From a virus (lineage: Duplodnaviria; Caudoviricetes): 64,000 nucleotides of DNA. The notes under the pieces were generated by a model. That model was not told where the DNA came from. It was given only the letters and a program-made list of their open reading frames with translations, and did no database searches. The stretch lies in the IMG/VR virus record IMGVR_UViG_3300006204_000008, positions 1-64,000 of that record. One strand, 5' to 3'. Shown piece by piece: positions 12,437 through 63,762 of this stretch (position 1 is its first letter; each line of letters begins with the position of its first letter). The translations under genes and the position numbers were made by a program.

Positions 12437-13264
12437 ATGGGAAGGATTGCAGTGAAAGGAGAGAAAATGGATATCTTGACCCAAAGAATGCTATTGTCAG
12501 AGTCTTATGCCCGGCTTGGAGAGACCAAACAATCAATCCGAGTGGAACAGTGCGGGAAAATTTACTGGTCCGAACAAGAAGATGGAGGAAAATTAGAAGG
12601 CCGACCGAGCTTTTGTAAAGATCGTCTCTGCCCGGCCTGTAGTTGGAGGTGGGGAAAGTCTATCACAAAAGAGGCAGTAGAAACGTTGTACAGAGTAAAA
12701 GAGATTGACCCAGATAGTAAGTTTCTGTTCCTCACACTTACGGTTCGATCTGTGCCAGGTCCTGAGATAAGCGAGGCTTTGAACACAATGGCGGAAGGAT
12801 TCAACCGATTTGTTAATAATCGAGCATTTAAGAGACGTGTAAAAGGTTTCTTAAAGGTTTTAGGTCTGAAATTCAATCATGTGGATGGAACGTTTCATTT
12901 CTATTATCAGTTGATTTTGTGTGTGAGCAAGAGCTATAAAAAGAATAAAAAGAAACTTTACTGGGAAATGGATGATTGGGCTCGAGTGTGGAGACAATCG
13001 GCTCGGTTGACGTATGATCCTCATGTCTGGGTTAGAGAAATCACCGGAGGGGATAGGGGACTGGCAAGAGCAGCAAGGCATCTTTCTCGGAGATTTGAGT
13101 GTATTGTTTCTGAAGATTCAGACTATACAGATCAAATTGTAGCAAGTTTGAGTAAAGATCTAAAACATCGGAGAATGGTCAGTTTTGCAGGAATATTATC
13201 GGACGCACGGAGGACTATATACCCTAAAAATTTGGAACAGATGAAGCAAAGGAGACAGATATGA
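12437..13264 (+). CDS. Rep_1 (pC194/pUB110-type rolling-circle initiator) homologue, apparently catalytically inactive
   Basis: CKDRLCPACSWR, FLFLTLTV and LKHRRMVSFAG match Rep_1; the HUH position reads HFYYQL and the YxxK position reads RHLSR. Confidence 0.75.
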   Translation: MGRIAVKGEKMDILTQRMLLSESYARLGETKQSIRVEQCGKIYWSEQEDGGKLEGRPSFCKDRLCPACSWRWGKSITKEAVETLYRVKEIDPDSKFLFLTLTVRSVPGPEISEALNTMAEGFNRFVNNRAFKRRVKGFLKVLGLKFNHVDGTFHFYYQLILCVSKSYKKNKKKLYWEMDDWARVWRQSARLTYDPHVWVREITGGDRGLARAARHLSRRFECIVSEDSDYTDQIVASLSKDLKHRRMVSFAGILSDARRTIYPKNLEQMKQRRQI

Positions 13265-13311
13265 CAAATTACACAATTACCAGTAAATCCCAACGGGGGG
13301 GGGCGTTCTGA
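13261..13311 (+). CDS. Poly-G leader peptide 1 (MTNYTITSKSQRGGAF*), G9 at 13295-13303
   Basis: ATGA overlap with the rep stop; with 8 or 11 G the ORF would extend to TAA 13358-13360, just past the ATG at 13351. Confidence 0.7.
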   Translation: MTNYTITSKSQRGGAF

Positions 13312-13350
13312 CCTCCTGACTGGCAGAACGCCCAAAGAGGGGGTGACGGT

Positions 13351-14046
13351 ATGCCGATAACCAACGGCAAGTACGTCAACCCCGGCTGGAAGAACGGCGG
13401 ACCGCCAGCTTTGGATGCTGGGGAACTGAATGCGATCAGTGACAGGCTGCAATATTTGGATGCCAACGCACAGGTAACTAAACCTACCCCTCAAAGGGTT
13501 CATGGTAGCATTGAAGCGGTGGAATGGACGCCTTCTGATGGAATGAAGTGGAAGAATATAGGGTATCTGCCTGGTTTTGACGCCAGTGATGTATGGGGAA
13601 CTTTAGGCGGGGAGTTTTATGCTAAGAGTGGTATAATTCCGAGTACAGCGACTATAGAAATAGGCTTTTCTCACGCACAAGGATATGGGCCAGATACCAC
13701 TTCGGTGTCAAAGTTTTTCATATCAAGTTTTTCGGGATATCAATCTTCAATTTCTAGGTTTGTATTGGGACCTTTGCCCGCTAAAGCTACCACTCCTAGT
13801 GAATCATTATATTTTGAAATTTCATCTATGGCCAGAGGTACCACAGGGTCAATAAAAACACTGGTTCTTACCATTGTATCTAAAAAAGTATCTGGAAATA
13901 CTTCTCAGGTTGCATTAAATCAATATGGCATTTGCGGCGAATTTGAATCGCTCGCATATCTTTGGGCAAGGCCAAGCAATGCATTGACTTCTGGTATGCT
14001 GAGGTTTCAGGGAGGTCGTGTAGATTTGTTCCCTACTGCAACATAA
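13351..14046 (+). CDS. Cassette 1 putative receptor-binding/tail-fibre protein
   Basis: N-terminus NPGWKNGGPPALDAGELNAISDRLQ is shared with the other cassettes; unique AT-rich C-terminal domain. Confidence 0.6.
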   Translation: MPITNGKYVNPGWKNGGPPALDAGELNAISDRLQYLDANAQVTKPTPQRVHGSIEAVEWTPSDGMKWKNIGYLPGFDASDVWGTLGGEFYAKSGIIPSTATIEIGFSHAQGYGPDTTSVSKFFISSFSGYQSSISRFVLGPLPAKATTPSESLYFEISSMARGTTGSIKTLVLTIVSKKVSGNTSQVALNQYGICGEFESLAYLWARPSNALTSGMLRFQGGRVDLFPTAT

Positions 14047-14049
14047 AGC

Positions 14050-14083
14050 AAGAAGGGGCCCACAGTAAAGTGGGCCCCTTCTT
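14050..14083. terminator. Probable bidirectional intrinsic terminator between convergent genes
   Basis: Perfect 14-bp inverted repeat AAGAAGGGGCCCAC / GTGGGCCCCTTCTT. Confidence 0.75.
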
Positions 14084-14105
14084 CTTGGAATTTTTGATTG
14101 ATGAA

Positions 14106-14396
14106 CTAAAGATTTTGCAATAGCCCGTCCCCGAGTACAATTGCGTTGGATTGATTTCCGAACACAAGCACCAGGGCCTGATCCCCGACGCCCAGAGAGG
14201 CGGCAGAGGGGACATAGGGAAGAGATAGGGTAGTGTCCTCCAGGGGCTTACGGACGCCGATAGCACCCCCAGAGGGGGCGGCTGTTACCTGCGCCCTGAA
14301 AAAGCTGACCTCGCTTCGTAGCATCTCAGCAACCTTGGGGCGAAAATAGGTCCAGAGGCCGTCAGCCAAGTCTTTCATCTGGTCGTTACTGCTCAT
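14106..14396 (-). CDS. Small beta-rich protein, possible baseplate/tail-tip OB-fold type
   Basis: RAQVTAAPSGG..V.....LSLPY...LGVGDQALVLVFG pattern; a homologous 3' fragment occurs at 49108-49192. Confidence 0.45.
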   Translation of the reverse strand: MSSNDQMKDLADGLWTYFRPKVAEMLRSEVSFFRAQVTAAPSGGAIGVRKPLEDTTLSLPYVPSAASLGVGDQALVLVFGNQSNAIVLGDGLLQNL

Positions 14397-14571
14397 TCCT
14401 GTCCCCTCTTTCCTTTCGCTGGGCAATGCGTAAAATGACGGTACATTTGGGTAGCCGGAGTTTCACCCCATCTTCGGAAAAAGCAGATATTTTTTTCACG
14501 ATGGGAGTGTCCTCGTCGGGCAGTTTGTATTCGACGGCATATTCGCAGAGTTTTGCATTCGGTCTTAACAT
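14386..14571 (-). CDS. Small hypothetical protein, paralogue of 15386-15571
   Basis: Shared MLRxNAxL..Y.V.Y..P....PI...I..FS..G..LRLP...ERG.R pattern. Confidence 0.6.
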   Translation of the reverse strand: MLRPNAKLCEYAVEYKLPDEDTPIVKKISAFSEDGVKLRLPKCTVILRIAQRKERGDRNEQ

Positions 14572-15389
14572 AGTCCTGCCCCCTTCAGCACTTCATTGTA
14601 GGCGGACATGGAGGCGATGGCGGCATCAATGAACCATATGGTCCCATGCTCATCAGCCATGAAATCCAGAGACCACTTCGCGGCTCCATACTTGCCGCCG
14701 GGACGACCGGGAAAGTCTCTCAGACTGTCCTCCACCAGTCTGACCACGCTGTCCCGACCTTGAGTAAATTCACACTCCAGACGGTTTGCCTGGGATTGGA
14801 ACACCGCCAAATCCTCTGGCAGATAAGACAGGGCGTTCACCATCGTTTCCCGCTCCCAATAGGGTACTACCGCTAAGACCTTCTTTGCGTCGAAGTCGTA
14901 GAATACTCGGTACTCTGCCCGCAGCGGCATCCCATGATAGATGGTCGGGAGGCTGCAATCTGGGTCAATGTACTGCCGCAGGACAACTCCGTTGATGAAT
15001 TGATCCGCACACAAGGCATGGTAGATCATGCTCAGTGCGCTGTCACCCAAGTCGTGGTCCGTCATGTCCTCCGTGATTTTGGTTTTGCCGAACCAGAACT
15101 TGTGGGAGGTCAGGCTGGACTTGAGAAAAAGGGGATAGGAACATCCCAGGGAAGTGACCGCTTCCCAGACATACGGGCGAAGCCACGCGCCGAATTTTAC
15201 GATCATTTCCGGCGCGTAATCATCACTGCTTACCCAGCAGAACCAATCATAGGGCAGCGGGATAAATATGCTTCTGGGTGAGGGCAGATACCCGGAAAGT
15301 TGGTAGTACCAGTTGTTGAAGGCGTTGGGGTTGTCGCTGGCCTCCGCGAATACCCTTTGCATAAATTTTTCGTACTCTTCTTTGCTCAA
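14565..15389 (-). CDS. ATP-grasp-like protein (R2K/Cdc123-related, tentative)
   Basis: LFLKSS, VLRQYI, EYRVFY, WSLDFM...WFIDAA resemble ATP-grasp nucleotide- and metal-binding motifs. Confidence 0.5.
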   Translation of the reverse strand: MSKEEYEKFMQRVFAEASDNPNAFNNWYYQLSGYLPSPRSIFIPLPYDWFCWVSSDDYAPEMIVKFGAWLRPYVWEAVTSLGCSYPLFLKSSLTSHKFWFGKTKITEDMTDHDLGDSALSMIYHALCADQFINGVVLRQYIDPDCSLPTIYHGMPLRAEYRVFYDFDAKKVLAVVPYWERETMVNALSYLPEDLAVFQSQANRLECEFTQGRDSVVRLVEDSLRDFPGRPGGKYGAAKWSLDFMADEHGTIWFIDAAIASMSAYNEVLKGAGLC

Positions 15390-20775: not shown

Positions 20776-20853
20776 GGCCGCTGGCCGGATTTGAACCGGC
20801 AACCCTTGAGGGCCATTTCCTCCCTCCGGCTCTGCCTATTGAGCTACAGCGGC
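20776..20853 (-). tRNA. tRNA-like element with canonical acceptor, D and T arms but an aberrant anticodon arm; isotype unassignable
   Basis: GCCGCTG/CAGCGGC acceptor, GCTC-AATAGGCA-GAGC D arm, GCCGG-TTCAAAT-CCGGC T arm; anticodon stem GAGGG/CCCTC closes a 9-nt loop with no U33; no encoded CCA. Confidence 0.6.
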
Positions 20854-24833: not shown

Positions 24834-24935
24834 AACTTTTCCTCCTGTGATTCCCCGGTTTTCCCGGGACGTGTATTCTGTGTGGATTTGGGGTCTTGGA
24901 TTGTGGCGGTTCTCATTTTACGGGAAACCACTTTC

Positions 24936-25005
24936 ACCCATGAGCGCCGCCCCGGAAGGGGCACCGGGCTTGCACCGGTCACGCCGCAGCGCGGGCCTTG
25001 CGGGC
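24936..25005 (-). ncRNA. Twister-sister self-cleaving ribozyme
   Basis: Minus strand GCCCGCAAGGCC-CGCGC(TGCG)GCGTG-ACCGG(TGCAAGC)CCGGT-GCCCC(TTCC)GGGGC-GGCGCTCATGGGT matches the twister-sister architecture as recalled. Confidence 0.85.
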
Positions 25006-25007
25006 GA

Positions 25008-25571
25008 TCAATCCATCTGGCAGTAGTCCATAGCATCATAGCCCATGGAGCGGAGCGCGGCAGTCATGGCCTCTGCGTTGCGGCTGCGGGCGTTGCCCTG
25101 GGCTCGGGTGTCCGGGCCGAAAACAAACTGTTTGGAGCCGTAACAATTCCAGACAAAACAGCCGGTCCCGGCTTCCTTCGCGGCTTGCTTCACTTTCTCC
25201 GCAGTCCAGCGGGGGAGGGAGAGGGCGGAGCTGTCAAAGTTACAAGTGCCGCCGTCCTCCGGGTTGGCATCCTCTACAGCGCGGCCAGCGGCCAGGGCCT
25301 TCTTGAGATCATCACGGAGCTTGGCGTAGCGTCCAGTCAGAGCGCCGGGGGCTCTCTTGTCTTTGGGCTTGTCCGGGGGATAGGCGGCGCGGATCACGGC
25401 AAAGTGGCTCAGGGCTTCCGCCTCTGTGGCGGATCTCATGCTGGCGATCTCGACATAACCGCCGGAAGTCATGAGCATTGTTTCATAGCTGCCAGGGGCA
25501 AGCTCGGAAGCGTCCAGGATGACGCGGCGGCCCTTGAGGGTGTATTCCTCGTGCTTTACAGTGTTAACCAT
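25008..25571 (-). CDS. Hypothetical phage protein, flanked by two ribozymes
   Basis: 187-aa ORF with SD; conserved-looking DGGTCNFDS motif. Confidence 0.65.
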   Translation of the reverse strand: MVNTVKHEEYTLKGRRVILDASELAPGSYETMLMTSGGYVEIASMRSATEAEALSHFAVIRAAYPPDKPKDKRAPGALTGRYAKLRDDLKKALAAGRAVEDANPEDGGTCNFDSSALSLPRWTAEKVKQAAKEAGTGCFVWNCYGSKQFVFGPDTRAQGNARSRNAEAMTAALRSMGYDAMDYCQMD

Positions 25572-25583
25572 GATAATACCTTT

Positions 25584-25646
25584 CTGCTCTACCATCATCA
25601 GGCCAGGGGGAGCAGTCCCTGACGACGGGCCTTGGCCCGTTTCGGC
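25584..25646 (-). ncRNA. Type II hammerhead ribozyme with pseudoknot
   Basis: Minus strand GCC-GAAA-C-GGGC(CAAG)GCCC-GUC-GUCAGGG(ACUGCUCC)CCCUGGC-CUGAUGA-U-GGU; loop CUGCUC pairs with downstream GAGCAG. Confidence 0.85.
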
Positions 25647-28012: not shown

Positions 28013-29224
28013 GCAAGACAGCACAGGGCCGGGGGGGGATTATTCCGCCGGCCCTTTTCCATGCCCGCATACGTCAAAATAAGAGCCGCCAAGGACGCCC
28101 ATCACCCCATGAGTTTTGGGGCCGCATTCCCTGGCGGTTCTTGCTTTTTATACTTTCTTCAGGGGGCAATTCTTTAGCGCGCTACTGTGTTCCCTCTACC
28201 CCTGCGCGCGCACGCGTGCGCGTATATATAATATATTTATATAAGCGAGCGCCCCCAGCGTAAGCGTCGGGGCGTGAGATACTTACATGACCATATACTG
28301 TGAGCGGCCAGCGCAAGTGAGGCCGCGGATGGTCTTTACTCGTGAGGCGGACGCGCAAGCGCTCCGCCGGATTGAGTATATCCACCCACAGAGCGCGACG
28401 AGCGTCAGCAATGTCGCGCGAGAGTATCACAGCCGGGGCGGTGCTGGTGTTGGTGATGGGGGGATGGATGAGTGAGGGCGCAAGCCTGCGGACTCTCCCG
28501 CCCTACTCCTGCCCTCCCTGCGGCCTGCTGCGGTTTTGGGGCTCGCTCTGCTCGCCTTGCGTGGTATACGATTAGTATATTATATACAATACTTACAGTT
28601 ATACGTACATCAGGAAGAAGGTTGACGTAGAAAAAAACGAAGAGGACCAAAGCCACTGCGAAGATGGCGGAGAAACCAGAGCCCACCAAAGGGGGAGGGA
28701 AAGAAGAGATCAGCAGGGAAGAAACAGAGCGGGGGCCCAACAGGAGAGAGGGGAAGAAAAAACGGGGAGAAGATGGGGAGATGGGGAGAGGGAAGGGAGT
28801 GTGTAGGAGGATGGAAAGAGTCACCGCGCGGCTGATGTTCCTGCTCAAAGCCATGAGGGCCCGCGCGATGATCCAAGCGCGAAGTGTGAAAAAGGCACGG
28901 ATCAGGCGGGAGACGCGCCACCTTGGCGGTCAAGTGGCAAGTGTTGTGATTCCTGCGAAGAATCACAACACTTGAAACCCATATACAGGCTTGAATAGAA
29001 AATAAAGGGTAAAACAGGGAGGCGGGGGAGTGCTTTTGCCGCAAGCACCCCCCTGGTTTGCAGTTTGGACCCCCTTTTTGGGCACGGTATACCTACTAGC
29101 TCTTCTTTCCGCTCCCATGTTCTCCATACCCCTCTGAACAGCGCACCCATCACCCAAGAACAAACTTAAACATCCAACCGCATGAGAAGCTTGGATAATA
29201 TATCGAAAAGATAGACATTAGCAT

Positions 29225-34200: not shown

Positions 34201-34251
34201 ATGGCAAAGTGTATAAATACCACTATTTACCAGTGGGGGGGGGCGTTCTGA
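34201..34251 (+). CDS. Poly-G leader peptide 2 (MAKCINTTIYQWGGAF*), G9 at 34235-34243
   Basis: With 8 or 11 G it would end at TGA 34289-34291, overlapping ATG 34291. Confidence 0.7.
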   Translation: MAKCINTTIYQWGGAF

Positions 34252-34290
34252 CCTCCTGATTGGCGAAATGCCCAAAGGGGGGTGCGTCTG

Positions 34291-34800
34291 ATGGCATATG
34301 TTGCCCCCAACTGGAAGAATGGCGCGGCCCCCGCGCTGGATGCCGCAGCCTTACAGGCAATCAGCGACGCCATTGTGGAGTTGCAAAACAAGAATACGTC
34401 CCAGGATAGCCTGATTGCTTCTTTGCAGTCAGAAATTTCATCCCTAAAGGATGGAAATATTCAGGTAGCCAGCGGATCATATTCAGGCACAGGAAGATCC
34501 GGAAGCTATGAAAACAGCACGAGAATTAACTTTCCCTTTGTTCCTGGCGTTATCTTCCTCTATTGCCCTAATGATGGCTGCTGCATGACCATCACTTCGA
34601 GTTCACAACAGAATACAATGTATCTGTTTGGCTCCAGCGGATCTGTGGTTTATGCATTTGATTGGACCCAGATTTCTGTAAGCCCAAAGTATGGTACAGG
34701 ATCTATTGCTTGGTATGGGAGCTCGGCTAAGAGACAGGCGAATGAATCAGGAAAGAAGTATTACTACCGAGCGTTTGGTAGGGTAGAAAAGAGTGCTTGA
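34291..34800 (+). CDS. Cassette 2 putative receptor-binding protein
   Basis: MAYVAPNWKNGAAPALDAAALQAISD N-terminus; GSYSGTG...WY...Q.N...YYY.AFG head domain. Confidence 0.65.
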   Translation: MAYVAPNWKNGAAPALDAAALQAISDAIVELQNKNTSQDSLIASLQSEISSLKDGNIQVASGSYSGTGRSGSYENSTRINFPFVPGVIFLYCPNDGCCMTITSSSQQNTMYLFGSSGSVVYAFDWTQISVSPKYGTGSIAWYGSSAKRQANESGKKYYYRAFGRVEKSA

Positions 34801-40765: not shown

Positions 40766-40816
40766 GTGGCGAAATACACAATTACCAATAAATGGATACG
40801 GGGGGGGGCATTCTGA
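40766..40816 (+). CDS. Poly-G leader peptide 3 (GTG start, MAKYTITNKWIRGGAF*), G9 at 40800-40808
   Basis: AAGGAGG SD; with 8 or 11 G it would end at TGA 40854-40856, overlapping ATG 40856. Confidence 0.75.
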   Translation: MAKYTITNKWIRGGAF

Positions 40817-40855
40817 CCTCCTGACTAGCAGAATGCCCAAAAGGGGGTGCGTCTG

Positions 40856-41371
40856 ATGGCATATGTTGCCCCCAACTGGAAGAATGGCGCGGCCCCCGCG
40901 CTGGATGCCGCTGCGTTGCAAGCAATCAGTGATGCCATTGTGGAGTTGCAAAACAAGAACACATCCCAGGATTCACTGATATCCTCCCTGCAGTCAGCGG
41001 TCAATGGAAAAGCAAGAGTGGCGTTTGGGACATATAGAGGGACGGGAGCGTTTGGAAGTACACATAGAAACCGTATAACATTGGGGTTTGCACCGTTTCT
41101 TTTTATGTGTACGGGTACCTATTGTTATAGCCCCATGAAATATTTTACTGTCGGATTTGGATGCGCGGCTGGGTATGTGACCCCTTCATTCGTTTGGTTA
41201 AGGGGGCCAAACACTATTTTGACGAGCGACGTTAATTCTACGAGTCAGCTTGAACACTATAGTATATACCCAACATGGGGGGATACCTTTATGGAGTGGT
41301 ATAGTGAAAGCAACGCAGAATGCCAACTAAACGCTTTATATACATACTACAATTATCTTGCTTTAGGGTAA
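40856..41371 (+). CDS. Cassette 3 putative receptor-binding protein
   Basis: Shared N-terminus; GTYRGTG...WY...QLN...YNYLALG head domain. Confidence 0.65.
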   Translation: MAYVAPNWKNGAAPALDAAALQAISDAIVELQNKNTSQDSLISSLQSAVNGKARVAFGTYRGTGAFGSTHRNRITLGFAPFLFMCTGTYCYSPMKYFTVGFGCAAGYVTPSFVWLRGPNTILTSDVNSTSQLEHYSIYPTWGDTFMEWYSESNAECQLNALYTYYNYLALG

Positions 41372-41804: not shown

Positions 41805-41931
41805 TAGAATACGGACAAAAAAACATACTTTTGAAAGATTCCCTCGCCGCAAGCAGGCGGCGGGAAGAGCCAGAAGGGCTGAACAAACCTCTCGGAAGAA
41901 ACCGGGAGGGGCGTTCAGCCCTTCTTTTTTT
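41801..41931 (+). promoter_or_regulatory. Late-operon leader 2: promoter, conserved motif, intrinsic terminator
   Basis: TTGATA(41801)-17-CATACT(41824); CCTCGCCGCAAGCAGGCGGCGGGAAGAGCCA at 41842-41872; GAAGGGCTGAAC...GTTCAGCCCTTC plus T run. Confidence 0.75.
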
Positions 41932-48354: not shown

Positions 48355-48405
48355 ATGACAAATTGCACAATTACCAATAAATGGATGCGGGGGGGGGGGC
48401 TCTAG
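48355..48405 (+). CDS. Poly-G leader peptide 4 (MTNCTITNKWMRGGGL*), G11 at 48389-48399
   Basis: GAGGAG SD; with 10 or 13 G it would extend to TGA 48452-48454, just past ATG 48442. Confidence 0.7.
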   Translation: MTNCTITNKWMRGGGL

Positions 48406-48441: not shown

Positions 48442-49053
48442 ATGCCTCTGGTGAATGGGAAATATCAGGCCCCAAACTGGAAGAACGGACAGGCCCCGGC
48501 CATTGACGCAGCGGAGCTGCAAGCAATCTGCGATAGATTGCAGGCGCTGGATAATTCTACAGCCTCTCCTATACTGGAGTTTGACGAGACAAAGATAGAC
48601 ACGGTTGCGTCTTCTGGTAAGAGGATTGAATTGGTGGCTCCTTTGATGCCTTACTTTAAAGCTGTGGAATGCTCCGCTTACCTACAGCTACTTGAGACGT
48701 TGTCGGAAGCCCCCAATTATCAGTTGGAATTTGTGAACTCCTATAATAATGCGGTTAAAATAAATTACTATAGGGATGGACAAACCGTAGCCAATAATGT
48801 TGATGCAATAGTTCTACCTGGAGGACCAAAAAGAAATGGAGAGAGGCTATCAATAAATTGGGGGTGGAATGATGTTTCGACTAGTGGTGTCATCACAAAA
48901 CTAGATTATTGGGCACAAAATAACGGTGGATTCATCAAGAGTACGTTTTATATCTGGTGTGATAGTTTGATCCAGAGGGTTTATTTGAAAAACTATAATG
49001 GGACAACAAAGGTTACTGGGAGAATGGCAAGATTGGGAGTTTTGGAAACATGA
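48442..49053 (+). CDS. Cassette 4 putative receptor-binding protein
   Basis: MPLVNGKYQAPNWKNGQAPAIDAAELQAICDRLQ (same subtype as cassette 1); unique AT-rich C-terminal domain. Confidence 0.6.
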   Translation: MPLVNGKYQAPNWKNGQAPAIDAAELQAICDRLQALDNSTASPILEFDETKIDTVASSGKRIELVAPLMPYFKAVECSAYLQLLETLSEAPNYQLEFVNSYNNAVKINYYRDGQTVANNVDAIVLPGGPKRNGERLSINWGWNDVSTSGVITKLDYWAQNNGGFIKSTFYIWCDSLIQRVYLKNYNGTTKVTGRMARLGVLET

Positions 49054-49107: not shown

Positions 49108-49192
49108 TCAAAGATTACTTAACGTCCCATCCCCCAGGACAATGGCGTTGGACAGATTGCCAAATACCAGCACCAGAGCCTGATCCCCCACG
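49108..49192 (-). pseudogene. 3' fragment of a homologue of the 14106-14396 gene
   Basis: Minus strand encodes VGDQALVLVFGNLSNAIVLGDGTLSNL*, versus VGDQALVLVFGNQSNAIVLGDGLLQNL*. Confidence 0.75.
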
Positions 49193-49404
49193 GCCTTGGA
49201 CGCTGCGGCTCTACAAGCGATGAGTGACGCTATTGTAGCGAACCAGACGAAGAACACGTCCCACGATTCCACCATCTCATCCATGCAGTCAGCAATCTCG
49301 GCGTTACAAAGTGGTGGATTGATAGTGGAAGTGGTGCGCCAACTGCATCAACGCAACTTAATGTTTCTGGCTCGACATACCATTTCTTGGAAATCTGGGT
49401 ATAA
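49193..49404 (+). pseudogene. Remnant seventh cassette: no leader or start, internal frameshifting deletion
   Basis: ALDAAALQAMSDAIV... in one frame; from 49315 another frame gives WIDSGSGAPTASTQLNVSGSTYHFLEIWV*, the head-domain C-terminal motif. Confidence 0.7.
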
Positions 49405-54577: not shown

Positions 54578-54621
54578 ATACCACTATTTACCAGTGGGGG
54601 GGGGGCGATCTAGCCTCCTGA
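54562..54621 (+). CDS. Poly-G leader peptide 5 (MAKCINTTIYQWGGGDLAS*), G10 at 54596-54605
   Basis: GGAGG SD; with 8 or 11 G it would end at TGA 54651-54653, overlapping ATG 54653. Confidence 0.7.
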   Translation: MAKCINTTIYQWGGGDLAS

Positions 54622-54652
54622 CTGGCAGAATGCCCAAAAGGGGGTGCGTCTG

Positions 54653-55144
54653 ATGGCATACGTTGCCCCCAACTGGAAGAATGGCGCGGCCCCAGCGCTG
54701 GACGCTGCCGCCTTGCAGGCAATCAGCGATGCCATTGTGGAGAACCAAGGAGATATTGCCTCACTCAAAACAGCAGTGGCAGAGAAAGCAGATGTGGTAA
54801 TCGGGTCCTATGTTGGCACGGGTGGCTATGGAAGTTCGCGCCCGTCTTCGCTCACATTCCCTAGTCCAGTCGAGTTTCTTTGGATATATGCTATTCGTTA
54901 TGGAGATGGCAGCATAGGCTCTACGCTTTATCGAGGGATGACTACCCTTCCCACCCTCACATTGTTGATGAATACTTGGCGCACGACACGCGGTTTTGAT
55001 CTTATTAACCACAGTTTGACTTCTGCCGCTGCAGCAAGGCGCACCAACTCTGGAAAAACTGTAGAGTGGTACAATAGTAATTCGGATAGTTCACAAGGTA
55101 GTATCAGTGGCTATACTTACTATTATTTGGCTGTATTGCAATAG
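54653..55144 (+). CDS. Cassette 5 putative receptor-binding protein
   Basis: Shared N-terminus; GSYVGTGGYGS..PSSLTF...WY...YTYYYLA head domain. Confidence 0.65.
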   Translation: MAYVAPNWKNGAAPALDAAALQAISDAIVENQGDIASLKTAVAEKADVVIGSYVGTGGYGSSRPSSLTFPSPVEFLWIYAIRYGDGSIGSTLYRGMTTLPTLTLLMNTWRTTRGFDLINHSLTSAAAARRTNSGKTVEWYNSNSDSSQGSISGYTYYYLAVLQ

Positions 55145-55991: not shown

Positions 55992-56115
55992 TTGACATTC
56001 CCCAAGTTTATGGTATAATCAGCTTAATATGAAATTCCTCGTCGCAAGCAGGCGGCGGGAAGAGCCAAGCTGGGCTGTTTTCTCCTGAACAAGGGGAAGG
56101 CAGCCCAGCTTTTTT
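55992..56115 (+). promoter_or_regulatory. Late-operon leader 3: promoter, conserved motif, intrinsic terminator
   Basis: TTGACA(55992)-16-TATAAT(56014); CCTCGTCGCAAGCAGGCGGCGGGAAGAGCCA at 56037-56067; AGCTGGGCTG...CAGCCCAGCT plus T run. Confidence 0.8.
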
Positions 56116-58280: not shown

Positions 58281-61200
58281 GTGGCCTACTTCGCCGCCAC
58301 CGGAAGCGAACAGAGCTTTACCATGCCCAAAGCGGGGCGGTATTACATAGATGTGGCCGGCGCGGAAGGCGCTGTGGGCAACAGCTATTCCGGCAGCTAT
58401 GGGTCTGTCCCCGGCAAGGGAGCCAGACTTCGCCTGCTGGTAGATCTGGCCGCAGGGGATGTTCTGACGGTCATCGTCGGCAAGCAGGGAAAGGGGACCA
58501 ACGGGACCGCGAAGGATGGTGCTTCCGGCGGGTCCGGCGGCGGGACCTTCGTTTTCAAGCGGATTGCTTCCGTCACCAACGCCAACTATCAGTTCACCAA
58601 GAACGGGGTGAACTACGAGGTGTTGGCCGTAGCCGCCGGCGGCGGCGGGACCGGGGACCAGAGCTATAAATCAGCGGTGAGCAACGGGGCCAACGGCCTT
58701 GGCGCAGCATATAAGCATCCGGGAAACTATGTGGCCTGGTCCACCCAGACGGCAAGCCTGACCTCCTCTGTGAGCCTGTCCGCCCCGCTGAGTATTTCTC
58801 AGTATATCGCCAACGGAGCTGGGGGTGCTTACTATACCCGCGGTTCCTCCACAGGCACCGGAGGATTTGGCATGGGCGGAGCCACGGATGACAATCCCTC
58901 CTGCGGCGGCGGCTGGTCCGGCAATAACACGGGGGTCTATTCCTGGGCCATCAACACCAGTGCCATAGGCGAGGACGGGGCCAACAGCGGGGATGGTTAC
59001 GCGGAGATCACCGAGCTGAAAACCATGCTGACCAACCTGATTCCCAACCCCAGCTTTGAGACGACGGCGGATTGGTCCGGGCTGACCCGTTCCACCACCT
59101 ATGCAGATTTTGGGCAATATTCCTCCCGCCTGGGGAGCACGTCAGGCACCGGCACCTATATCAATACGGTCAAGCCCACCAAGCCCCCGGTGAAGGGGCA
59201 CAAATACTATGGGCGGCACTATCTGCGCACCACCACCAATGTCACCACGGCGGATAACCGCTTTGAACTCTACGCCGGAGACGGTGCGGGGCTGAACTTC
59301 GTGTTTGGCAACAACGGCGGAAATCACCCCCAGTGGGATATGGAGTCTAAGATCATCACGCTGACCACACTGGCCTCCGCCGCGTCCAACTACAGCATCC
59401 GCAACTTTACGGTCAACGCCTCCAATTATGTCTACTGCGACGGGCTGATGCTCATTGACCTGACTGCAGCCTTCGGGGCCGGGAACGAGCCCAGCAAGGA
59501 GTGGTGCGACCGGGTGATCCCCTTCTTCGAGGGGACCAGGGCGGTGACCGTGCGGGCCAAGGCCACCATTACCAGGCAGCCGGTGAGCGGGAGCTATATC
59601 ATCAACACCGCCGCCTCGGCCCTGACGGTTGCCGCCACGGGACAGGGGACGCTTTCTTATCAGTGGCAGCGGTCCAGCAACGGCAGCAGCTGGACCAATA
59701 TTTCTGGGGCGACGGGGACCGCCTACACCCCGCCGACAACGGCCCTTGGAACCATCTATTACCGCTGTGTGGTGACGGATACCCTGGGCGCCCCGGCCCT
59801 GTATCCCTCCACCGCACTTTATCCTGGAACCGTGCTGTACCCCATGGCGGAGGGTCTTTACGACACAGCGGCCACCAACAGCACGGCGGTGACGGTACTG
59901 GTTTACGGAGCGGTGGCCCCCACTATCACCACCCAGCCTGTGAGCGCCACCTACGATAACAGCGAGACACCGGTTCCTCTGACTGTAGCGGCGTCGCCTC
60001 CAGCCAACGGGACCCTGGAATACCAGTGGCAGAACAGCCCCAACGGAAATACCTGGACGAATATCTCTGGAGCTACAGGGACCAGCTATACACCGCCCAC
60101 CAGCACCAACGGGTCCATTTCCTACCGCTGCGTGGTGACGAACGTGGTTCAGTCTGACCGCAAGTCCACCAATTCCAACACGGCTACCATTACCATCCGA
60201 GGTGCCGTAGCACCTACGATCAGCGCACAGCCCCAGAGTTCGGCCTATGGACTGGAGGACACGCCGGCGCCTTTAAGCGTGACAGCGTCCACCACCCAGG
60301 GAACGCTGAGCTATCAGTGGTCGGTGTCTGGGGACGGGGGCATCACCTGGGCCAATATCGCCGGAGCCACGTCCAGTACCTACACCCCGCCCACGGACAG
60401 CACGGGGACGAAGCAATACCGGGTGACGGTGACCAGCACAGTGGGCATCTCTACCGCTTCTGTGGTTTCTGACCCGGCCAGCGTTACGGTTTACGCCGCA
60501 ACAATACCGGTATTTACCAGGCAGCCCACCGGGGCCACCTATGACCATGGGGCAGAGGCCGCGCCTCTGACAGCGGCGGCAAGTGCGGAATGGGGCGCTG
60601 TTCTTTATCAGTGGGAACGGTCCGAGGATGCCGGCGCAAGCTGGAGCGAGATCCCGGGAGCCACGGCGGCTTCCTACATGCCCCCGACCACCCCGGGTGG
60701 GACGGTTTCCTACCGGCTCAAGGCCACCAATATCGTTGGCCCTACCTCCGAAAGCGCCTATTCCGACACTGCGGTCATTACCATCCTGTCGGCCTCCGCG
60801 CCTGTGTTTGCCGCGCCCCTGAGCGGGGCGGAATACGATCAGGGAGATCCGACGACCGCTCTGATCGGAACGGCCGCATCCCCGCATGGTACCGTGACTT
60901 ATCAGTGGTACGGCAGGACGGGAAGTGGGGCTTTCTCCGCCCTCACAGGCCAGACTGCCGCAGCCTTTACGCCGCCCAGCGCGGCCCAGGGTGTGTATCA
61001 ATACTACGTCGTTGCCACCAACACCGTGGGGACTTCCACGGCCACGGCCCAAAGCAATACCGTCACCATCACGGTCTATGGGGCCACGGAGCCGATCTTT
61101 ACGGTTCAGCCAGTGAGTGCGGATTATATTGAAAACGACCCGGCAGCGGCTCTGACTGTTGCGGCCACCGTGGAGCGGGGAAGCCTTGCCTTCCAGTGGC

Positions 61201-62933
61201 AGTTGTCTCGGGGGACGGTCCGGGCGTGGTCTGATATCCCGGGGGCAGACGCAAACGCTTATACACCACCTACCAGTGTCCCGGGAACATACCAGTACCG
61301 CTGTGTAGCGGTGAATACCGTGGGTACCTCCGTCGCTACCAGCTTTTCGGAGACGGCGCAGATCACGGTGACAGCGGCCCAGGTCCCTGTTTTCCTGCAT
61401 CCGCTGGTCAATGCCACCTACAGTCTGCTTTCCCTCACCGGGGAGCTGGACGGCACGGCGGAGGTCACGGACGGGGGTACTATCACTTACCGGTGGTTCA
61501 TGGCAGAGAAGGGACAGTCCTTTGTGGAAATCCCTGACGCGGTGTATGCTGCCTATCAGCCCAAGTCCATCACGGCAGGGGTATGGCAATACTACGTCAT
61601 CGCTACTAACACGCTCCATAACTCCGTACGCAGCGCCACGTCCAATACGGCGGAAATTACTATCATCGACCGGCGGTGGACGGCGGCGGAGAAGATGCGG
61701 GACTATCTAAACCAGCTCCGCACACCCTTTGTAAAATTGTGCCGCCTGCGTTTCCTTCAGCCCGACGGGTCCACGGCCTTTGCCCTGGACAACAACCCCT
61801 TTAACCGCCGCAGTGGGGCTTTTATCGCCGACGGGAGCATTTCATGCAACCTCCAGAACGGCACCCGCCGTACAGCCACGGTGAATCTCTCAAACCTCGA
61901 TGCCGCCTACGACTACAACCTCAACATGGTTTGGTTCGGTCAGGAGATCGCCATCGATGAGGGCCTTGTCCTCTCCAATGGGGAGGACTACTACATCCAG
62001 CAGGGAATCTTCTGTGTGGAAAGCCCAACGGAGACCGTAGAGCCAGGGAACCGGGTGGCCCAATACAATCTTACTGATAAATGGTCCATGCTGGACGGAA
62101 CGTTGTTTGGCTACCTGGAGGGGACGTATGAGGTGAAAGTGAACACCAACATTTTTGAGCCGATTCAAGCGATCTTGTCCTTGGACCGGGGGAATGGGCG
62201 GAAAGTAGATGCTGTGCCACCGGTTTTCACGGAATATTACAACACAAAAACCCAAAAACTTGCGGACGGAACTACAGTCAAGCTAACTGATTCTCCGTAT
62301 ACTCTTCGTGTTGATGGGGAGAGCGGGTCCTATGGAGACGTGGTTCTGGGGATGGCGGAGATGGTAAATGCCTGGGTCGGCTACGATTCCGCAGGTGCCC
62401 TGCGCCTGGACCCATCCCAGGATGATATCCTTGACACGGACAAACCCATACTCTGGCGTTTCTCCATGGAGGAGGCACAGTTATTGGGCGCAGCCTACAC
62501 GGTGAAAAACACGGAAGTCTACAATGATTACATCGTGATCGGCGAACAGTTGGATGACAACAGCCAGCCTGCGGGTCGGGCCACCAACTTAGACCCCATG
62601 AGCGACACCAATGTACAGACCATAGGCCGCAAGACGTTCCGGCAGAGCGCGGCGGGATACGCCACAAAACAGCAATGTGAAGACAGAGCTGTTTGGGAAC
62701 TGAAACGGTCTGCGGGATTGCAAAAGGCGGTGTCTATCTCCTGTACGCAGATGTTCCACCTTGAGGAAAACAACCTTGTCACCGTGACCCGGACGGACAA
62801 GCCGGGGTCTCCGGTAGAGCGGCACCTGATCATGGGCTTTGAGCGGCCCTTGGCAGGCACAGGGGAGATGACCATCACGGCAGTGTCGGTGAATGATTAC
62901 CCAAACGCCACGGTGACGGGTTGGCCGGAGTGA
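58281..62933 (+). CDS. Large tail protein: glycine-rich domain, CBM-like domain, seven Ig-like repeats, C-terminal hub-like domain
   Basis: GGxGGG motifs; NLIPNPSFE...DLTAAFGAGNEPSKEWCD; seven P.(I/F)..(Q)P...Y...L......YQW...Y repeats; C-terminal IVIGE...GRK...A.WEL. Confidence 0.8.
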   Translation: MAYFAATGSEQSFTMPKAGRYYIDVAGAEGAVGNSYSGSYGSVPGKGARLRLLVDLAAGDVLTVIVGKQGKGTNGTAKDGASGGSGGGTFVFKRIASVTNANYQFTKNGVNYEVLAVAAGGGGTGDQSYKSAVSNGANGLGAAYKHPGNYVAWSTQTASLTSSVSLSAPLSISQYIANGAGGAYYTRGSSTGTGGFGMGGATDDNPSCGGGWSGNNTGVYSWAINTSAIGEDGANSGDGYAEITELKTMLTNLIPNPSFETTADWSGLTRSTTYADFGQYSSRLGSTSGTGTYINTVKPTKPPVKGHKYYGRHYLRTTTNVTTADNRFELYAGDGAGLNFVFGNNGGNHPQWDMESKIITLTTLASAASNYSIRNFTVNASNYVYCDGLMLIDLTAAFGAGNEPSKEWCDRVIPFFEGTRAVTVRAKATITRQPVSGSYIINTAASALTVAATGQGTLSYQWQRSSNGSSWTNISGATGTAYTPPTTALGTIYYRCVVTDTLGAPALYPSTALYPGTVLYPMAEGLYDTAATNSTAVTVLVYGAVAPTITTQPVSATYDNSETPVPLTVAASPPANGTLEYQWQNSPNGNTWTNISGATGTSYTPPTSTNGSISYRCVVTNVVQSDRKSTNSNTATITIRGAVAPTISAQPQSSAYGLEDTPAPLSVTASTTQGTLSYQWSVSGDGGITWANIAGATSSTYTPPTDSTGTKQYRVTVTSTVGISTASVVSDPASVTVYAATIPVFTRQPTGATYDHGAEAAPLTAAASAEWGAVLYQWERSEDAGASWSEIPGATAASYMPPTTPGGTVSYRLKATNIVGPTSESAYSDTAVITILSASAPVFAAPLSGAEYDQGDPTTALIGTAASPHGTVTYQWYGRTGSGAFSALTGQTAAAFTPPSAAQGVYQYYVVATNTVGTSTATAQSNTVTITVYGATEPIFTVQPVSADYIENDPAAALTVAATVERGSLAFQWQLSRGTVRAWSDIPGADANAYTPPTSVPGTYQYRCVAVNTVGTSVATSFSETAQITVTAAQVPVFLHPLVNATYSLLSLTGELDGTAEVTDGGTITYRWFMAEKGQSFVEIPDAVYAAYQPKSITAGVWQYYVIATNTLHNSVRSATSNTAEITIIDRRWTAAEKMRDYLNQLRTPFVKLCRLRFLQPDGSTAFALDNNPFNRRSGAFIADGSISCNLQNGTRRTATVNLSNLDAAYDYNLNMVWFGQEIAIDEGLVLSNGEDYYIQQGIFCVESPTETVEPGNRVAQYNLTDKWSMLDGTLFGYLEGTYEVKVNTNIFEPIQAILSLDRGNGRKVDAVPPVFTEYYNTKTQKLADGTTVKLTDSPYTLRVDGESGSYGDVVLGMAEMVNAWVGYDSAGALRLDPSQDDILDTDKPILWRFSMEEAQLLGAAYTVKNTEVYNDYIVIGEQLDDNSQPAGRATNLDPMSDTNVQTIGRKTFRQSAAGYATKQQCEDRAVWELKRSAGLQKAVSISCTQMFHLEENNLVTVTRTDKPGSPVERHLIMGFERPLAGTGEMTITAVSVNDYPNATVTGWPE

Positions 62934-62987
62934 TTTTAGGGCTGTGATACAATGAGAGATAAGATGACAGGAAGGAGAGATATGACT

Positions 62988-63050
62988 ATGGCGAAATACA
63001 CAATTACCAGTAAATCCCAACGGGGGGGGGGTGCCTCCATAACACCCTAG
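62988..63050 (+). CDS. Poly-G leader peptide 6 (MAKYTITSKSQRGGGASITP*), G10 at 63022-63031
   Basis: AAGGAG SD; with 8 or 11 G it would end at TGA 63074-63076, overlapping ATG 63076. Confidence 0.7.
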   Translation: MAKYTITSKSQRGGGASITP

Positions 63051-63075
63051 GCACCTTGCACAAGGGGGTGGCGTG

Positions 63076-63762
63076 ATGGCTTACGTTGCCCCCAAGTGGA
63101 AGAACAGCGGACCGCCCGCCTTGGACGCTGCCGCGCTGCAAGCGATTTCTGATACATTGGCGAAAGTGCCCATTGAAAATGGTGGGACTGGGGCTACCAG
63201 CGCTGCGGCTGCCCTCCATGCACTCATCAGTGCAGTCGAAGGAGTGAATGAAACGGGGATCACTTCCAGTTCCCGTATCCCATTTGATGTTTGGCCAGAT
63301 GGCCCTGCGAAATATATAACAGCGAATGGACTCGGAAGGTACTTTGCAAGAAATGTTGATGGCCTGATGATGCAGGTTGGTTCCTATGTCGGGACAGGGC
63401 TTTATGGAAGTGGTAACCATAACACGCTTACTTTCACCATGTATCCTAAATTTGTTTGGCTGTTTGGGATGTGTAATTCCAGTTATACAAGTGGAATAGG
63501 CACCAAACTTAGTCTGATAGGAATCAACGACGGGGGAGATAACAACACCATTTATTCGACAGCACCTGGATGGTATGTGTCTGGGTACAAACAAGAACAA
63601 GGATTTTGGTATAAATCTTCTTCTACATATTCATATGGGCGTGAACAAAGTATATCAACCGGAGATGGCAGAGTGAGATCTTTAAGATGGTATAACACAC
63701 AAAGTGCATCTGCACAGCTTAATCAAAGCTCAACGAGGTATATATGGCTTGCTTTGGGCTGA
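63076..63762 (+). CDS. Cassette 6 putative receptor-binding protein (canonical tail-fibre position)
   Basis: MAYVAPKWKNSGPPALDAAALQAISD; GSYVGTGLYGS..NTLTF...WY...QLN...YIWLALG. Confidence 0.7.
   Translation: MAYVAPKWKNSGPPALDAAALQAISDTLAKVPIENGGTGATSAAAALHALISAVEGVNETGITSSSRIPFDVWPDGPAKYITANGLGRYFARNVDGLMMQVGSYVGTGLYGSGNHNTLTFTMYPKFVWLFGMCNSSYTSGIGTKLSLIGINDGGDNNTIYSTAPGWYVSGYKQEQGFWYKSSSTYSYGREQSISTGDGRVRSLRWYNTQSASAQLNQSSTRYIWLALG

Follow-up and report, generated by a model that had tools for sequence, protein, structure and literature searches.

Translational coupling relies on overlapping stop and start codons and on a hairpin that sequesters the downstream Shine-Dalgarno (SD) sequence until it is opened by the upstream ribosome. 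Campylobacter phages of the genus Fletchervirus are reported (Sorensen et al., 2021, Cell Rep 35:109214) to carry hypermutable poly-G in their receptor-binding genes, where slippage yields subpopulations differing in host recognition. In S. gallolyticus the number of repeats in a leader-peptide ORF of pil1 and pil3 sets how far ribosomes reach, far-reaching ribosomes melt a stem-loop to give the ON state, and low-state cells make up most of the population at pil1 (Danne et al., 2014, PLoS Pathog 10:e1003860; PMC3894217). Homopolymer slippage as a form of bet-hedging is described for T2/T4 and other phages in a recent preprint (Gomez, Barrick and Waters, 2025; bioRxiv 10.1101/2025.10.21.683753). 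For H. pylori tlpB, a G homopolymer of variable length in the mRNA leader tunes translation via the sRNA RepG (PMC8295292), and the requirements for re-initiation in coupling are treated in PMC2268962.

The window analysed here is a stretch of 64,000 nt from a phage genome of mouse-gut origin that is complete at 78.9 kb. Three contigs bearing the cassettes described below were binned within a mouse-gut Oscillospiraceae MAG, a hint to the host that rests on the binning association only.

Architecture of the leader cassettes

The original prediction had placed six sites of a single design in the window, and recomputation of run positions, frames and stops bore this out. All six share one order: an SD, a start codon, a 34 nt AT-rich leader (11 codons plus 1 nt between each leader start and G run), a run of G9-G11, a spacer, a GGGGGUG SD and the start of a gene, with 42-47 nt between the G run and the gene start. 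The features are as follows.

12437-13264: Rep_1 gene, its stop overlapped by the ATG of leader 1
13261-13311, + strand: leader ORF 1 as assembled; G9 at 13295-13303; GGAG SD immediately upstream
About 13301-13333: hairpin H1 of cassette 1
13351-14046, + strand: fibre-like gene 1, 231 aa; shared N-terminal WKN..PALDA motif, own C-terminal domain
14050-14083: strong bidirectional terminator after fibre-like gene 1
34201-34251, + strand: leader ORF 2 as assembled; G9 at 34235-34243; coupled frame (G8/G11) ends at 34291, UGAUG
34278-34308, + strand: predicted hairpin sequestering the SD in cassette 2; GGGGGUG (SD) paired with GCCCCC (codons 5-6), AUG in the loop, -17.8 kcal/mol
34291-34800, + strand: fibre-like gene 2, 169 aa; N-terminal strand, helix 18-54 and 8-strand beta sandwich (model)
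40766-40816, + strand: leader ORF 3 as assembled; GTG start; G9 at 40800-40808
40843-40873, + strand: predicted SD hairpin of cassette 3
40856-41371, + strand: fibre-like gene 3, 171 aa
48355-48405, + strand: leader ORF 4 as assembled; G11 at 48389-48399; coupled frame (G10/G13) ends at 48454
48442-49053, + strand: fibre-like gene 4, 203 aa; own C-terminal domain; start region weakly structured, -7.5 kcal/mol
49190-49330, + strand: relic of another member of the fibre-gene family; only the N-terminal motif and the neck are left, with no start codon
54562-54621, + strand: leader ORF 5 as assembled; G10 at 54596-54605
54640-54670, + strand: predicted SD hairpin of cassette 5
54653-55144, + strand: fibre-like gene 5, 163 aa
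62988-63050, + strand: leader ORF 6 as assembled; G10 at 63022-63031; spacer unrelated, same stop logic
63064-63093, + strand: predicted SD hairpin of cassette 6, -25 kcal/mol, rank 1 for structure among 60 gene starts
63076-63762, + strand: fibre-like gene 6, 228 aa; weak PHROG tail-fibre match

The cassettes are direct repeats on the same strand, with no inverted copy. Their conservation sets in abruptly at the leader start codon and extends about 35 codons into the downstream gene, and upstream of the leader start they have only a GGAG-type SD in common. The only runs of at least eight Gs in the window are the six cassette runs and a G8 at 28031-28038, and no C run of at least eight occurs anywhere across it. 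No extra cassette was found in the remaining 15 kb of the genome. A match at 1353 to the codon string for WKN is spurious, lying in another reading frame. The relic at 49190-49330 reads as the scar of a cassette replacement.

Two frames are closed within 19 nt after each G run (6/6). The early stops lie 8 nt apart and flank a CCUCC-like pentamer, within the hairpin that holds the last Gs of the run. Cassettes 2, 3, 5 and 6 close the third frame with UGAUG, cassettes 1 and 4 with a stop 9-12 nt beyond the downstream AUG. Without any expression data, we can show that the length of the G run determines which of the three frames ribosomes follow: the coupled frame requires G8 or G11 in cassettes 1, 2, 3, 5 and 6 and G10 or G13 in cassette 4. 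As assembled, no cassette (0/6) is in the coupled frame; each is one G away, as had been claimed and as the frame computation confirms, the shift needed being the loss of one G in cassettes 1-4 and the gain of one in cassettes 5 and 6.

The downstream SD is predicted to lie in a hairpin of -17 to -25 kcal/mol in four of the six cassettes (rank 1-7 of 60 gene starts), and ranking of local structure over the same 60 starts puts fibre-gene start regions at ranks 1, 4, 5, 7 and 9. In the UGAUG types the computed probability that the SD is unpaired is 0.02-0.08. Cassette 4 has little SD structure and in cassettes 1, 7 and 8 the SD is sequestered in a different manner, thus one mechanism may not fit all. 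Distant homologues without leaders have neither the G-rich SD nor the C-run codons. Hairpin H1 is followed by AAAG with no U-tract, a second hairpin holds the SD and AUG, and a terminator scan made no + strand call between the G run and the gene; the missing U-tract and the position of the stem-loop on the SD and start point to translational coupling as the form of control. Whole-leader RNA folds are not unusually stable (z -1.7 to +0.7 against shuffles), so the structural signal is local. Occlusion of the downstream SD unless the leader is translated remains an inference from predicted hairpins only, and so strong an SD could also support basal translation independent of frame.

No Rfam family matched at any cassette. 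Away from the cassettes, Rfam matches comprise a twister-sister ribozyme, a hammerhead II ribozyme and one tRNA. An RNA run (X15) covers cassette 1 and parts of the region with contigs of low depth; it was rejected as evidence for transcript starts, since its contig ends follow repeats and DNA carry-over cannot be excluded.

Gated proteins and relatives of the design

The gated proteins (163-231 aa) are modelled as trimeric coiled-coil fibres with a beta-sandwich head. The AlphaFold model of fibre-like gene 2 (pLDDT 75) has a long helix and a beta sandwich, and its homotrimer prediction scored 0.67 against 0.00 for the best control, with contact agreement of at least 78% and partner pLDDT of at least 82 across runs. 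Among proteins whose solved structures are pairs of one chain, 20 of 30 reached a score of 0.67, and among those solved as single chains 1 of 23 did; these calibration counts are approximate here, as our homotrimer runs used their own alignment and three copies. Tail-fibre matches in BFVD reached E 8e-7, the best VIA match, to the SFP21A tail fibre (Z 6.0, rmsd 3.1 over 96 residues), falls within the chance range, and Foldseek against the PDB returned generic Ig-like matches only, with E above 0.03. Neither Pfam nor PHROGs assigned the gated proteins to a family, two weak PHROG matches aside. A homologue on one contig (L018) sits between tail genes and lysis genes. That the gated proteins bind receptors is inferred from the modelled trimeric fibres and the one distant homologue in a tail module, without binding data.

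Among INPHARED phages there was one unannotated partial match, to the tape-measure gene. Protein-based scans found no matches in genome contigs and, in metagenome contigs, only three distant loci, all without leaders.

Where leaders do occur in related contigs, their features are those of a translated ORF. GGAG or GAGG lies 6-10 nt before the leader start in 14 of 14 non-homologous upstream contexts (background 0.14 per 14-nt window), and the start codon is ATG or GTG. The stretch before the run measures 25, 28 or 34 nt (32 in one variant), lengths that keep the conserved ACC-AAT-AAA motif in frame, and the G tract lies in codons 12-15 of the leader. Leader sequence variation has no wobble bias, suggesting that the leader is partly conserved as nucleic acid, for a reason that is unknown.

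Absence of the pattern of two closed frames and one coupled frame from homologous loci would have refuted the original prediction; the pattern is present at every homologous and analogous locus found. It holds in all 11 spacer types, which include three phage lineages with unrelated downstream genes, and TGA, TAG and TAA all occur at both early-stop positions, a sense codon never. Composition-preserving shuffles of the spacers recover the full design at P 0.02-0.16 per type, giving a joint P of ~6e-8 for six dissimilar types treated as independent, a figure that overstates the case because the spacer types have common ancestry. The same design precedes genes unrelated to those here in L041/L043 (a second tail-fibre-like gene after baseplate genes) and in L050/L051 (with an ATGA overlap in L050), and in one variant (L002) the leader is fused to the downstream ORF. 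That three or more phage lineages have this design, and that the genes behind it can be unrelated, indicates a general regulatory module, one that annotation pipelines miss because the leaders are only 16-20 codons long.

Tract-length variation and its interpretation

Tract lengths were read from consensus contigs (JGI, ENA, Logan), not from raw reads, and in the comparison of Logan runs paralogous cassettes cross-map. The G tract is hypermutable in nature, with 8-12 G seen among relatives and otherwise identical metagenome contigs. JGI sibling contigs differ at cassette 2 (9 versus 11 G), cassette 3 (9 versus 8) and cassette 5 (10 versus 11). By locus, cassette 2 is G11 in L011, cassette 3 is G8 in L011, X1 and X11, cassette 4 is G10 in X7, and cassette 5 is G11 in L013 and G12 in X7; a single ENA cassette has G8, G9 and G10 across three samples. 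Control homopolymers (C7, A7, T7) are invariant in length. Over 20 kb, the indels listed for Logan runs X1 and X7 are confined to three G runs, and the long pieces from these runs (12.7 and 9.9 kb) have no further differences from this phage. Invariant tracts would have refuted the original prediction; instead the tracts supply the main length differences, and the sole ones in two runs. Its further claim of independent switching is matched by independent variation in length: L011 has cassettes 2 and 3 in the coupled frame and its third cassette not, and X7 has cassette 4 at -1, cassette 5 at +2 and cassette 3 unchanged.

Over 46 observations the number of Gs was 8 in 5, 9 in 19, 10 in 16 and 11 in 6. 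Ten of these are in the coupled frame and 36 in an early-stop frame (binomial P 0.06 against one third), so that the coupled frame is at best a minority state. In L057/L058, from one study, cassette 4 has an interrupted 10-nt tract that lies in the coupled frame. A G9 contig at cassette 5 in X1 and X11 was set aside as possible cross-mapping of cassette 2, whose substitutions it carries. Joints between cassettes (in Logan runs, L011 and L012) were likewise discarded as evidence of recombination, such long repeats being able to mislead assemblers.

Our preferred reading, to which we assign a probability of roughly 0.6, is that each cassette is a contingency locus working via translational coupling. 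Slipped-strand mispairing during replication of the phage DNA would alter each tract independently. The third frame leads ribosomes to the downstream start, by way of the UGAUG or of the stop 9-12 nt past the AUG; in four of the six cassettes a stable predicted hairpin with codons 5-6 would hide the downstream SD, which third-frame ribosomes alone would melt before re-initiating, giving the ON state, and the remaining two classes of tract length would be OFF or low. Genotypes expressing different subsets of six alternative small trimeric fibres, which have one shared docking N-terminus and differing heads, would then coexist in a phage population, and the presumed outcome is bet-hedging in host recognition. 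Since run length is almost the sole difference between otherwise identical phage copies, each fibre is probably switched on and off at random and heritably. Support for taking the coupled frame as the expressing one is inferential and comes from the SD hairpins and from the single locked allele of one study. That translational output tracks the number of Gs, and that switching is reversible, are inferences made without reporter, expression or read-level data.

Several other explanations must be weighed against this reading. Runs of 9-11 identical bases suffice for transcriptional slippage, and the tracts are of this length; RNA polymerase slippage, or +1/-1 slippage of ribosomes on the rare CGG-GGG-GGG codons, could place a constant fraction of ribosomes in the coupled frame at every infection, a fixed-ratio recoding rather than a heritable switch in which DNA length merely tunes the ratio. 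Such recoding is compatible with variation at the DNA level, most spacer types have a hairpin beginning at the 3' end of the run, and with all six cassettes one G off the coupled frame a low, constant expression of six fibres is conceivable. We nevertheless consider it unlikely, though not to be dismissed: the shift needed is one G lost in some cassettes (1-4) and one gained in others (5, 6), the run abuts the hairpin without the spacer of a classical -1 frameshift site, the DNA tracts demonstrably differ between populations, and the interrupted, non-slippery allele in the coupled frame (L057/L058) would be intolerable for a device that depends on slippage. Expression might also be graded by the number of Gs without regard to frame, the run competing with the SD for an anti-SD segment (the CCUCC or the GCCC arm of H1), serving as target of a C/U-rich sRNA or forming a G-quadruplex. 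The CCUCC-like pentamer between the two early stops would suit such a device, as would the pairing, in five unrelated spacer families, of the last Gs of the run with a CCC directly ahead of the SD and the alternative pairing of the cassette 1 CCC with the SD, and there is a precedent for an sRNA that reads a G-repeat of varying length in an mRNA leader (PMC8295292). This is improbable as the whole explanation, because it does not account for the SD and start codon of every leader, the in-frame leader lengths, the two stops kept through changes among TGA, TAG and TAA, or the third frame left open to the start; graded control could still be superimposed on the frame mechanism.

The shared 190-nt 5' module might instead be a recombination handle for swapping fibre heads, with the G tract a drifting passenger. 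Within a genome, paralogous modules resemble each other more closely than orthologues do from strain to strain (here cassettes 2, 3 and 5 are near-identical, and the BATT21 strain has another, identical set), one and the same fibre gene is found with different leaders in different contigs, joints across cassettes occur in L011 and L012, and there is the relic fragment at 49190-49330. Short contigs with mixed leaders and genes could be chimeras of the assembly, however, and a passenger would decay by interruption, yet 46 of 48 observed cassettes retain G8-G12, as do three lineages whose downstream genes are unrelated, and the stop design is retained with it; we hold this quite improbable as a replacement for regulation, with which recombination is in any case compatible. 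The AT-rich leader could also be a promoter (-35 ATGACA, -10 TAAAT) starting transcription in the G run, so that length would affect initiation or reiterative transcription. ATGACA does lie 17 nt before TAAAT in cassettes 1 and 4, the run begins ~7 nt after TAAAT, and the leader is conserved at the nucleotide and not the amino-acid level. Yet a sigma-70 consensus scan called none of the six sites on the + strand while finding perfect promoters elsewhere, the -35 reads GTGGCG in cassette 3, the start codon lies 10-13 nt before TAAAT in L041, L043 and L050, where the SD plus ATG is conserved and the -35 is not, and four leaders start 0-55 nt after the preceding gene, like cistrons of an operon; a promoter is accordingly very improbable. 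Hardly credible is a sequencing or assembly artefact in which homopolymer miscalls mimic length variation. Several platforms are prone to errors in long G runs, the cassettes are places where contigs break and only consensus contigs were available, but the differences were called in consensus sequence at depth 18-40, in some cases amount to two units (9 versus 11, 10 versus 12) and recur across independent studies and assemblers (JGI, ENA, Logan), and miscalls leave the conserved design unexplained.

Known switching devices were also sought. The original prediction held that switching needs no recombinase or reverse transcriptase. Reverse transcriptase is indeed absent, with no RVT_1 match throughout the complete 78.9-kb genome, and a diversity-generating retroelement was rejected on this ground. 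Two recombinases are encoded, which qualifies that part of the claim, but the cassettes are all direct repeats, and switching by an invertase or shufflon of the Mu Gin or P1 Cin type was rejected for want of any inverted cassette copy. A programmed -1/+1 ribosomal frameshift site, which calls for a single shift direction and for 5-9 nt between slippery site and stimulatory structure, was rejected as well, the direction needed varying by cassette and the hairpin including the last Gs of the run.

Implications and relation to described systems

If, as translational coupling at a contingency locus would have it, the tract gates translation, the phage varies its choice among six fibres with the fibre genes untouched and without recombinase or retroelement machinery, by a module that is small and self-contained. 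This would be a compact form of host-range bet-hedging in the gut, where hosts vary their own surfaces. Consensus assemblies would then misreport the expressed repertoire: all six cassettes would count as OFF here, and most individual genomes may have at least one ON. A broader and tentative proposal, which we put at somewhat less than even odds, is that the series of SD, short ORF, poly-G, two stops and SD hairpin is a portable cassette that moves among gut Firmicutes phages, fits any accessory virion gene and acts as a heritable coin-toss. Its six copies would allow up to 64 expression genotypes of fibres competing for one docking site, a host-range lottery played in translation only, with the 5' module doubling as a recombination handle that renews the heads.

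The design that had been put forward as a candidate new system is real; 'new' was too strong a word, as leader-peptide phase variation and phage contingency loci have already been published. Like Fletchervirus, this phage carries slipping poly-G and would form subpopulations with different host-recognition proteins. The Fletchervirus tract reportedly lies inside the coding sequence and shifts the frame of the protein itself, whereas here it lies 42-47 nt upstream in an ORF of its own, whose third frame stops at the fibre start without fusing to it, so that the fibre ORF stays intact throughout; the presumed host is a Firmicute, not Campylobacter, and the targets are six paralogues with one docking end. 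Classical coupling shares the UGAUG or near-AUG stop and, as far as the predicted folds go, the downstream SD in a local hairpin. Its upstream ORF is a fixed gene, whereas in the phage a hypermutable tract leaves it to chance whether the coupling frame is reached.

The T2/T4-type loci are intragenic frameshifts in many gene classes, without a leader ORF, a coupling design or a fibre bank (10.1101/2025.10.21.683753). RepG control of tlpB is presented as antisense pairing with gradual effect, with no leader ORF or frame logic (PMC8295292). As in S. gallolyticus pil1, a simple-sequence repeat sits in a short leader ORF before surface-appendage genes; the pil1 repeat is a GCAGA pentamer and not a G homopolymer, its stem-loop is an intrinsic transcription terminator (attenuation) where the stem-loop predicted for the phage contains the next gene's SD and start, and a single bacterial locus stands against a phage device in six copies (PMC3894217). 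The phage cassettes thus work like pil1-type attenuation without being a member of that class, as they have no intrinsic terminator, and they would carry the leader-peptide principle of S. gallolyticus over from attenuation of transcription to translational coupling.

Cassette architecture and variation in G-run length

Six G runs lie where the original prediction placed them, each within a short leader ORF followed by a spacer, a Shine-Dalgarno (SD) sequence and a fibre-like gene. Apart from these six and a control run at 28031, no G run in the window reaches 8 nt, nor does any C run, and the last 15 kb of the genome contain no seventh cassette.

Cassette 1: leader from 13261, fibre-like gene from 13351
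Cassette 2: leader from 34201, fibre-like gene from 34291
Cassette 3: leader from 40766, fibre-like gene from 40856
Cassette 4: leader from 48355, fibre-like gene from 48442
Cassette 5: leader from 54562, fibre-like gene from 54653
Cassette 6: leader from 62988, fibre-like gene from 63076

The distance from start codon to G run is 34 nt in every leader of the six. A spacer of 42-47 nt leads to the downstream start, which has GGGGGUG as its SD. In a six-way alignment similarity begins exactly at the leader start codon and extends ~35 codons into the downstream gene. Translating the leaders with G-2 to G+2 recovers the predicted frame table: in all six cassettes two frames are closed 6-19 nt past the run, and the third (coupled) frame, which reaches the fibre-gene start, ends in UGAUG (cassettes 2, 3, 5 and 6) or 9-12 nt beyond the AUG (cassettes 1 and 4). 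As assembled, none of the six is in the third frame, and one G separates each from it. The putative switch is real as a feature of the sequence, and its interpretation as a set of poly-G leaders gating six receptor-binding protein genes is supported as far as sequence can go, in the absence of any expression measurement.

Invariant tract lengths would have spoken against the prediction, and the run lengths in consensus contigs differ among siblings and samples. Sibling JGI contigs have 11 G rather than the 9 of the window in cassette 2, 8 rather than 9 in cassette 3 and 11 rather than 10 in cassette 5, the G number of cassettes 4 and 6 being unchanged. Logan contigs from two sequencing runs (X1 and X7) include long pieces (12.7 and 9.9 kb) otherwise identical to the window; over 20 kb of these contigs the sole indels listed are at the three covered runs, cassettes 3 and 4 each being one G shorter and cassette 5 two G longer or one shorter. 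One cassette from an ENA study has G8, G9 and G10 across three samples. The 46 non-redundant observations comprise run lengths of 8 (5), 9 (19), 10 (16) and 11 (6), with the coupled frame found in 10/46 and an early-stop frame in 36/46. Seven-nt runs of C, A or T show no length change where covered; in the control G run (28031-28038) a sibling contig has 8 G and a diverged strain 6. An inverted repeat, GGGCCGG/CCGGCCC, holds this control run in its loop region. Because only consensus contigs were available for tract lengths, variation within a population and reversibility are not shown.

A reading of the leader as a promoter (ATGACA, 17 nt, TAAAT) was rejected: of the six cassettes only 1 and 4 match it, the short leaders of three other contigs (L041, L043 and L050) do not fit, and a consensus scan calls no promoter at the leaders. 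As for the leader as a translated ORF, its start codon is ATG or GTG and is preceded at 6-10 nt by GGAG or GAGG in 14/14 distinct non-homologous upstream contexts collected, the background chance being 0.14 per 14-nt window. Leader lengths (25, 28 and 34 nt) are spaced in multiples of three, which preserves the frame of the conserved ACC-AAT-AAA, and every run starts at codon position 2.

Frame design and the predicted ON state

The pattern of two closed frames and one coupled frame, whose absence from homologous loci would also have refuted the prediction, is kept in all 11 spacer types found: the frame of the gene itself and a second frame close early, leaving the third open to the start. 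Shuffles reproduce this design with P of 0.02-0.16 per spacer type. Most spacer types have a CCUCC-like pentamer between the early stops, which are separated by 8 nt. Each early-stop position is seen as TGA, TAG and TAA, with a sense codon at neither; such interchange is what purifying selection for a stop at these positions would look like.

Two hairpins are predicted in the cassettes. The first occurs in five unrelated spacer families; it is formed by the final G's of the run with a CCC just before the SD and encloses both early stops in an arrangement whose role remains open. The second, predicted for cassettes 2, 3, 5 and 6, joins the G-rich SD to the GCCCCC of codons 5-6 and places the AUG in the loop (-17 to -25 kcal/mol, P(SD unpaired) 0.02-0.08). 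By local structure these four cassettes rank 1, 4, 5 and 7 among 60 gene starts of the genome, with cassette 1 at 9 and cassette 4 at 28. Leaderless homologues have ordinary SDs and GCA-CCT/CCC codons, indicating that the SD hairpin goes with the leader.

In the proposed mechanism a ribosome in the third frame would meet the SD hairpin and terminate on the start codon, and ribosomes in the other two frames would stop >25 nt upstream. The third frame should be the ON state, an assignment based on the SD hairpins and one interrupted allele, with no expression data. In this allele, present in Logan contigs from two runs of one study (L057 and L058), the cassette 4 tract is broken by two T's, giving a non-homopolymeric tract of 10 nt in total that is in the coupled frame ~60 nt upstream of the gene at 401. 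It is a candidate locked-ON allele from a single strain, of the form that fixation of the ON state would take.

Proteins proposed to be gated and their genomic setting

The six proteins behind the leaders have ~35 N-terminal residues in common and diverge beyond them, four carrying related heads and two other heads. No Pfam or PHROG family fits them, and their family is rare, 5.8 billion proteins yielding 32 clusters. In the model of protein 2 (pLDDT 75) a short strand is followed by a helix of 37 residues and a sandwich of eight strands. Among BFVD entries the model matches predicted tail-fibre proteins of phages (E 8e-7), and its similarity to solved fibre/spike C-termini is weak (Z of 6.0 and 5.4, in the chance range). 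Prediction with three copies yields a parallel trimer formed through the helix heptad positions (score 0.67 versus 0.00 for the best control), with runs agreeing in at least 78% of contacts and pLDDT of at least 82. The 0.67 mark is reached by 20/30 solved one-chain pairs and 1/23 single chains, a calibration that is only rough here. In another contig (L018) the fibre homologue lies between tail genes and a lysis cassette. As a predicted architecture, small trimeric fibres with a shared docking end are well supported; receptor binding is an inference.

The window covers the opening 64 kb of a virus record of 78,923 bp, a single contig rated complete, and has a G+C content of 55%. Near-identical copies occur in mouse-gut metagenomes from at least 11 studies, and the natural host is probably a relative of the Oscillospiraceae of mouse gut. 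SPbeta-type structural families (YomU tube, YomW, YomN, YonD_N) and a tape-measure protein are encoded on sibling contigs. The genome has no reverse transcriptase, and its recombinases are one large serine and one tyrosine enzyme. Further features of the window are as follows.

12437-13264: Rep_1 (rolling-circle plasmid replication) family protein, E 3e-39
20776-20853, minus strand: tRNA gene (Rfam, 45 bits)
24931-25008, minus strand: twister-sister ribozyme, 65.7 bits
25583-25647, minus strand: type II hammerhead, 45.6 bits
29276-29317, 41841-41882 and 56036-56077: three copies of a 42-nt motif, 76-95% identity
49190-49330: remnant of a seventh fibre gene from this family, lacking a start codon and reduced to the N-terminal motif and neck
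59682-60688: four tandem units of ~294 nt each, 68-75% identity, within a 1550-aa tail protein

Cassette 1 lies within the replication module, distant from the tail genes, and the stop of the Rep_1 gene overlaps the start of leader 1. The twister-sister ribozyme and hammerhead bracket a 196-aa ORF (25008-25598, minus strand). The 42-nt motif is possibly a 5' leader element common to three structural operons; a perfect sigma-70 promoter (55992-56019) precedes the copy at 56036-56077, and the copy at 41841-41882 is followed by a terminator (41904-41926) directly ahead of the tape-measure operon. The tandem units match Ig-like and Hoc-like PHROG families.

The modules are more alike within one genome than to orthologues in other strains, and the fibre-gene remnant follows fibre gene 4, ahead of the next gene, observations that point to putative gene conversion at the shared 5' module and to replacement of heads there. 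Some contigs fuse the leader of one cassette to the gene of another, and this mixing may be misassembly. In two JGI contigs (L011 and L012) the cassette 3 leader is joined to fibre gene 5 and the gene upstream of cassette 2 to cassette 5; the joins skip 14-20 kb, tape-measure gene included, and reflect either recombination between cassettes or misassembly at repeats. Deletions also occur in two contigs: at 9507 of L002 (minus strand) the spacer is missing and a G8 leader abuts the fibre ORF, where G9 would fuse both in frame, and at 139 of L001 (plus strand) the SD and start region are lost.

Spread of the module and relation to known systems

The design is found with a new spacer ahead of a homologous fibre gene in a Clostridiales MAG (L038), and in Peptococcaceae MAGs from mouse gut and human gut, one each (L041 and L043), where it precedes the second of two paralogous tail-fibre-like genes after baseplate genes. 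In an IMG/VR phage (L050 and L051) it stands ahead of the gene for a 115-aa protein adjoining the terminase genes. Leader and run are both absent at the distant fibre-protein homologues (L009, L018 and L020-22), and the module is therefore an add-on. The low-GC homologue L009, which has no leader, contains a C10 run (~1525-1540) within its conserved N-terminal coding motif that may be an intragenic contingency tract.

No paper found in a literature search describes phage fibre genes coupled to a leader ORF that contains a homopolymer. Contingency loci have reportedly been published in a Campylobacter phage study, as intragenic tracts. Those of T2/T4 are likewise intragenic (bioRxiv 10.1101/2025.10.21.683753). 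The tract of the cassettes described here occupies a separate leader ORF instead. The leader-peptide repeat of S. gallolyticus pil1 controls whether ribosomes get as far as a stem-loop and melt it (PMC3894217). To that extent the logic proposed for the phage is the same, a leader repeat controlling ribosome access to a stem-loop; however, the pil1 stem-loop is a transcription terminator (PMC3894217), while the one predicted in the phage cassettes holds the ribosome-binding site, and the cassettes are therefore not a member of the pil1 mechanism.
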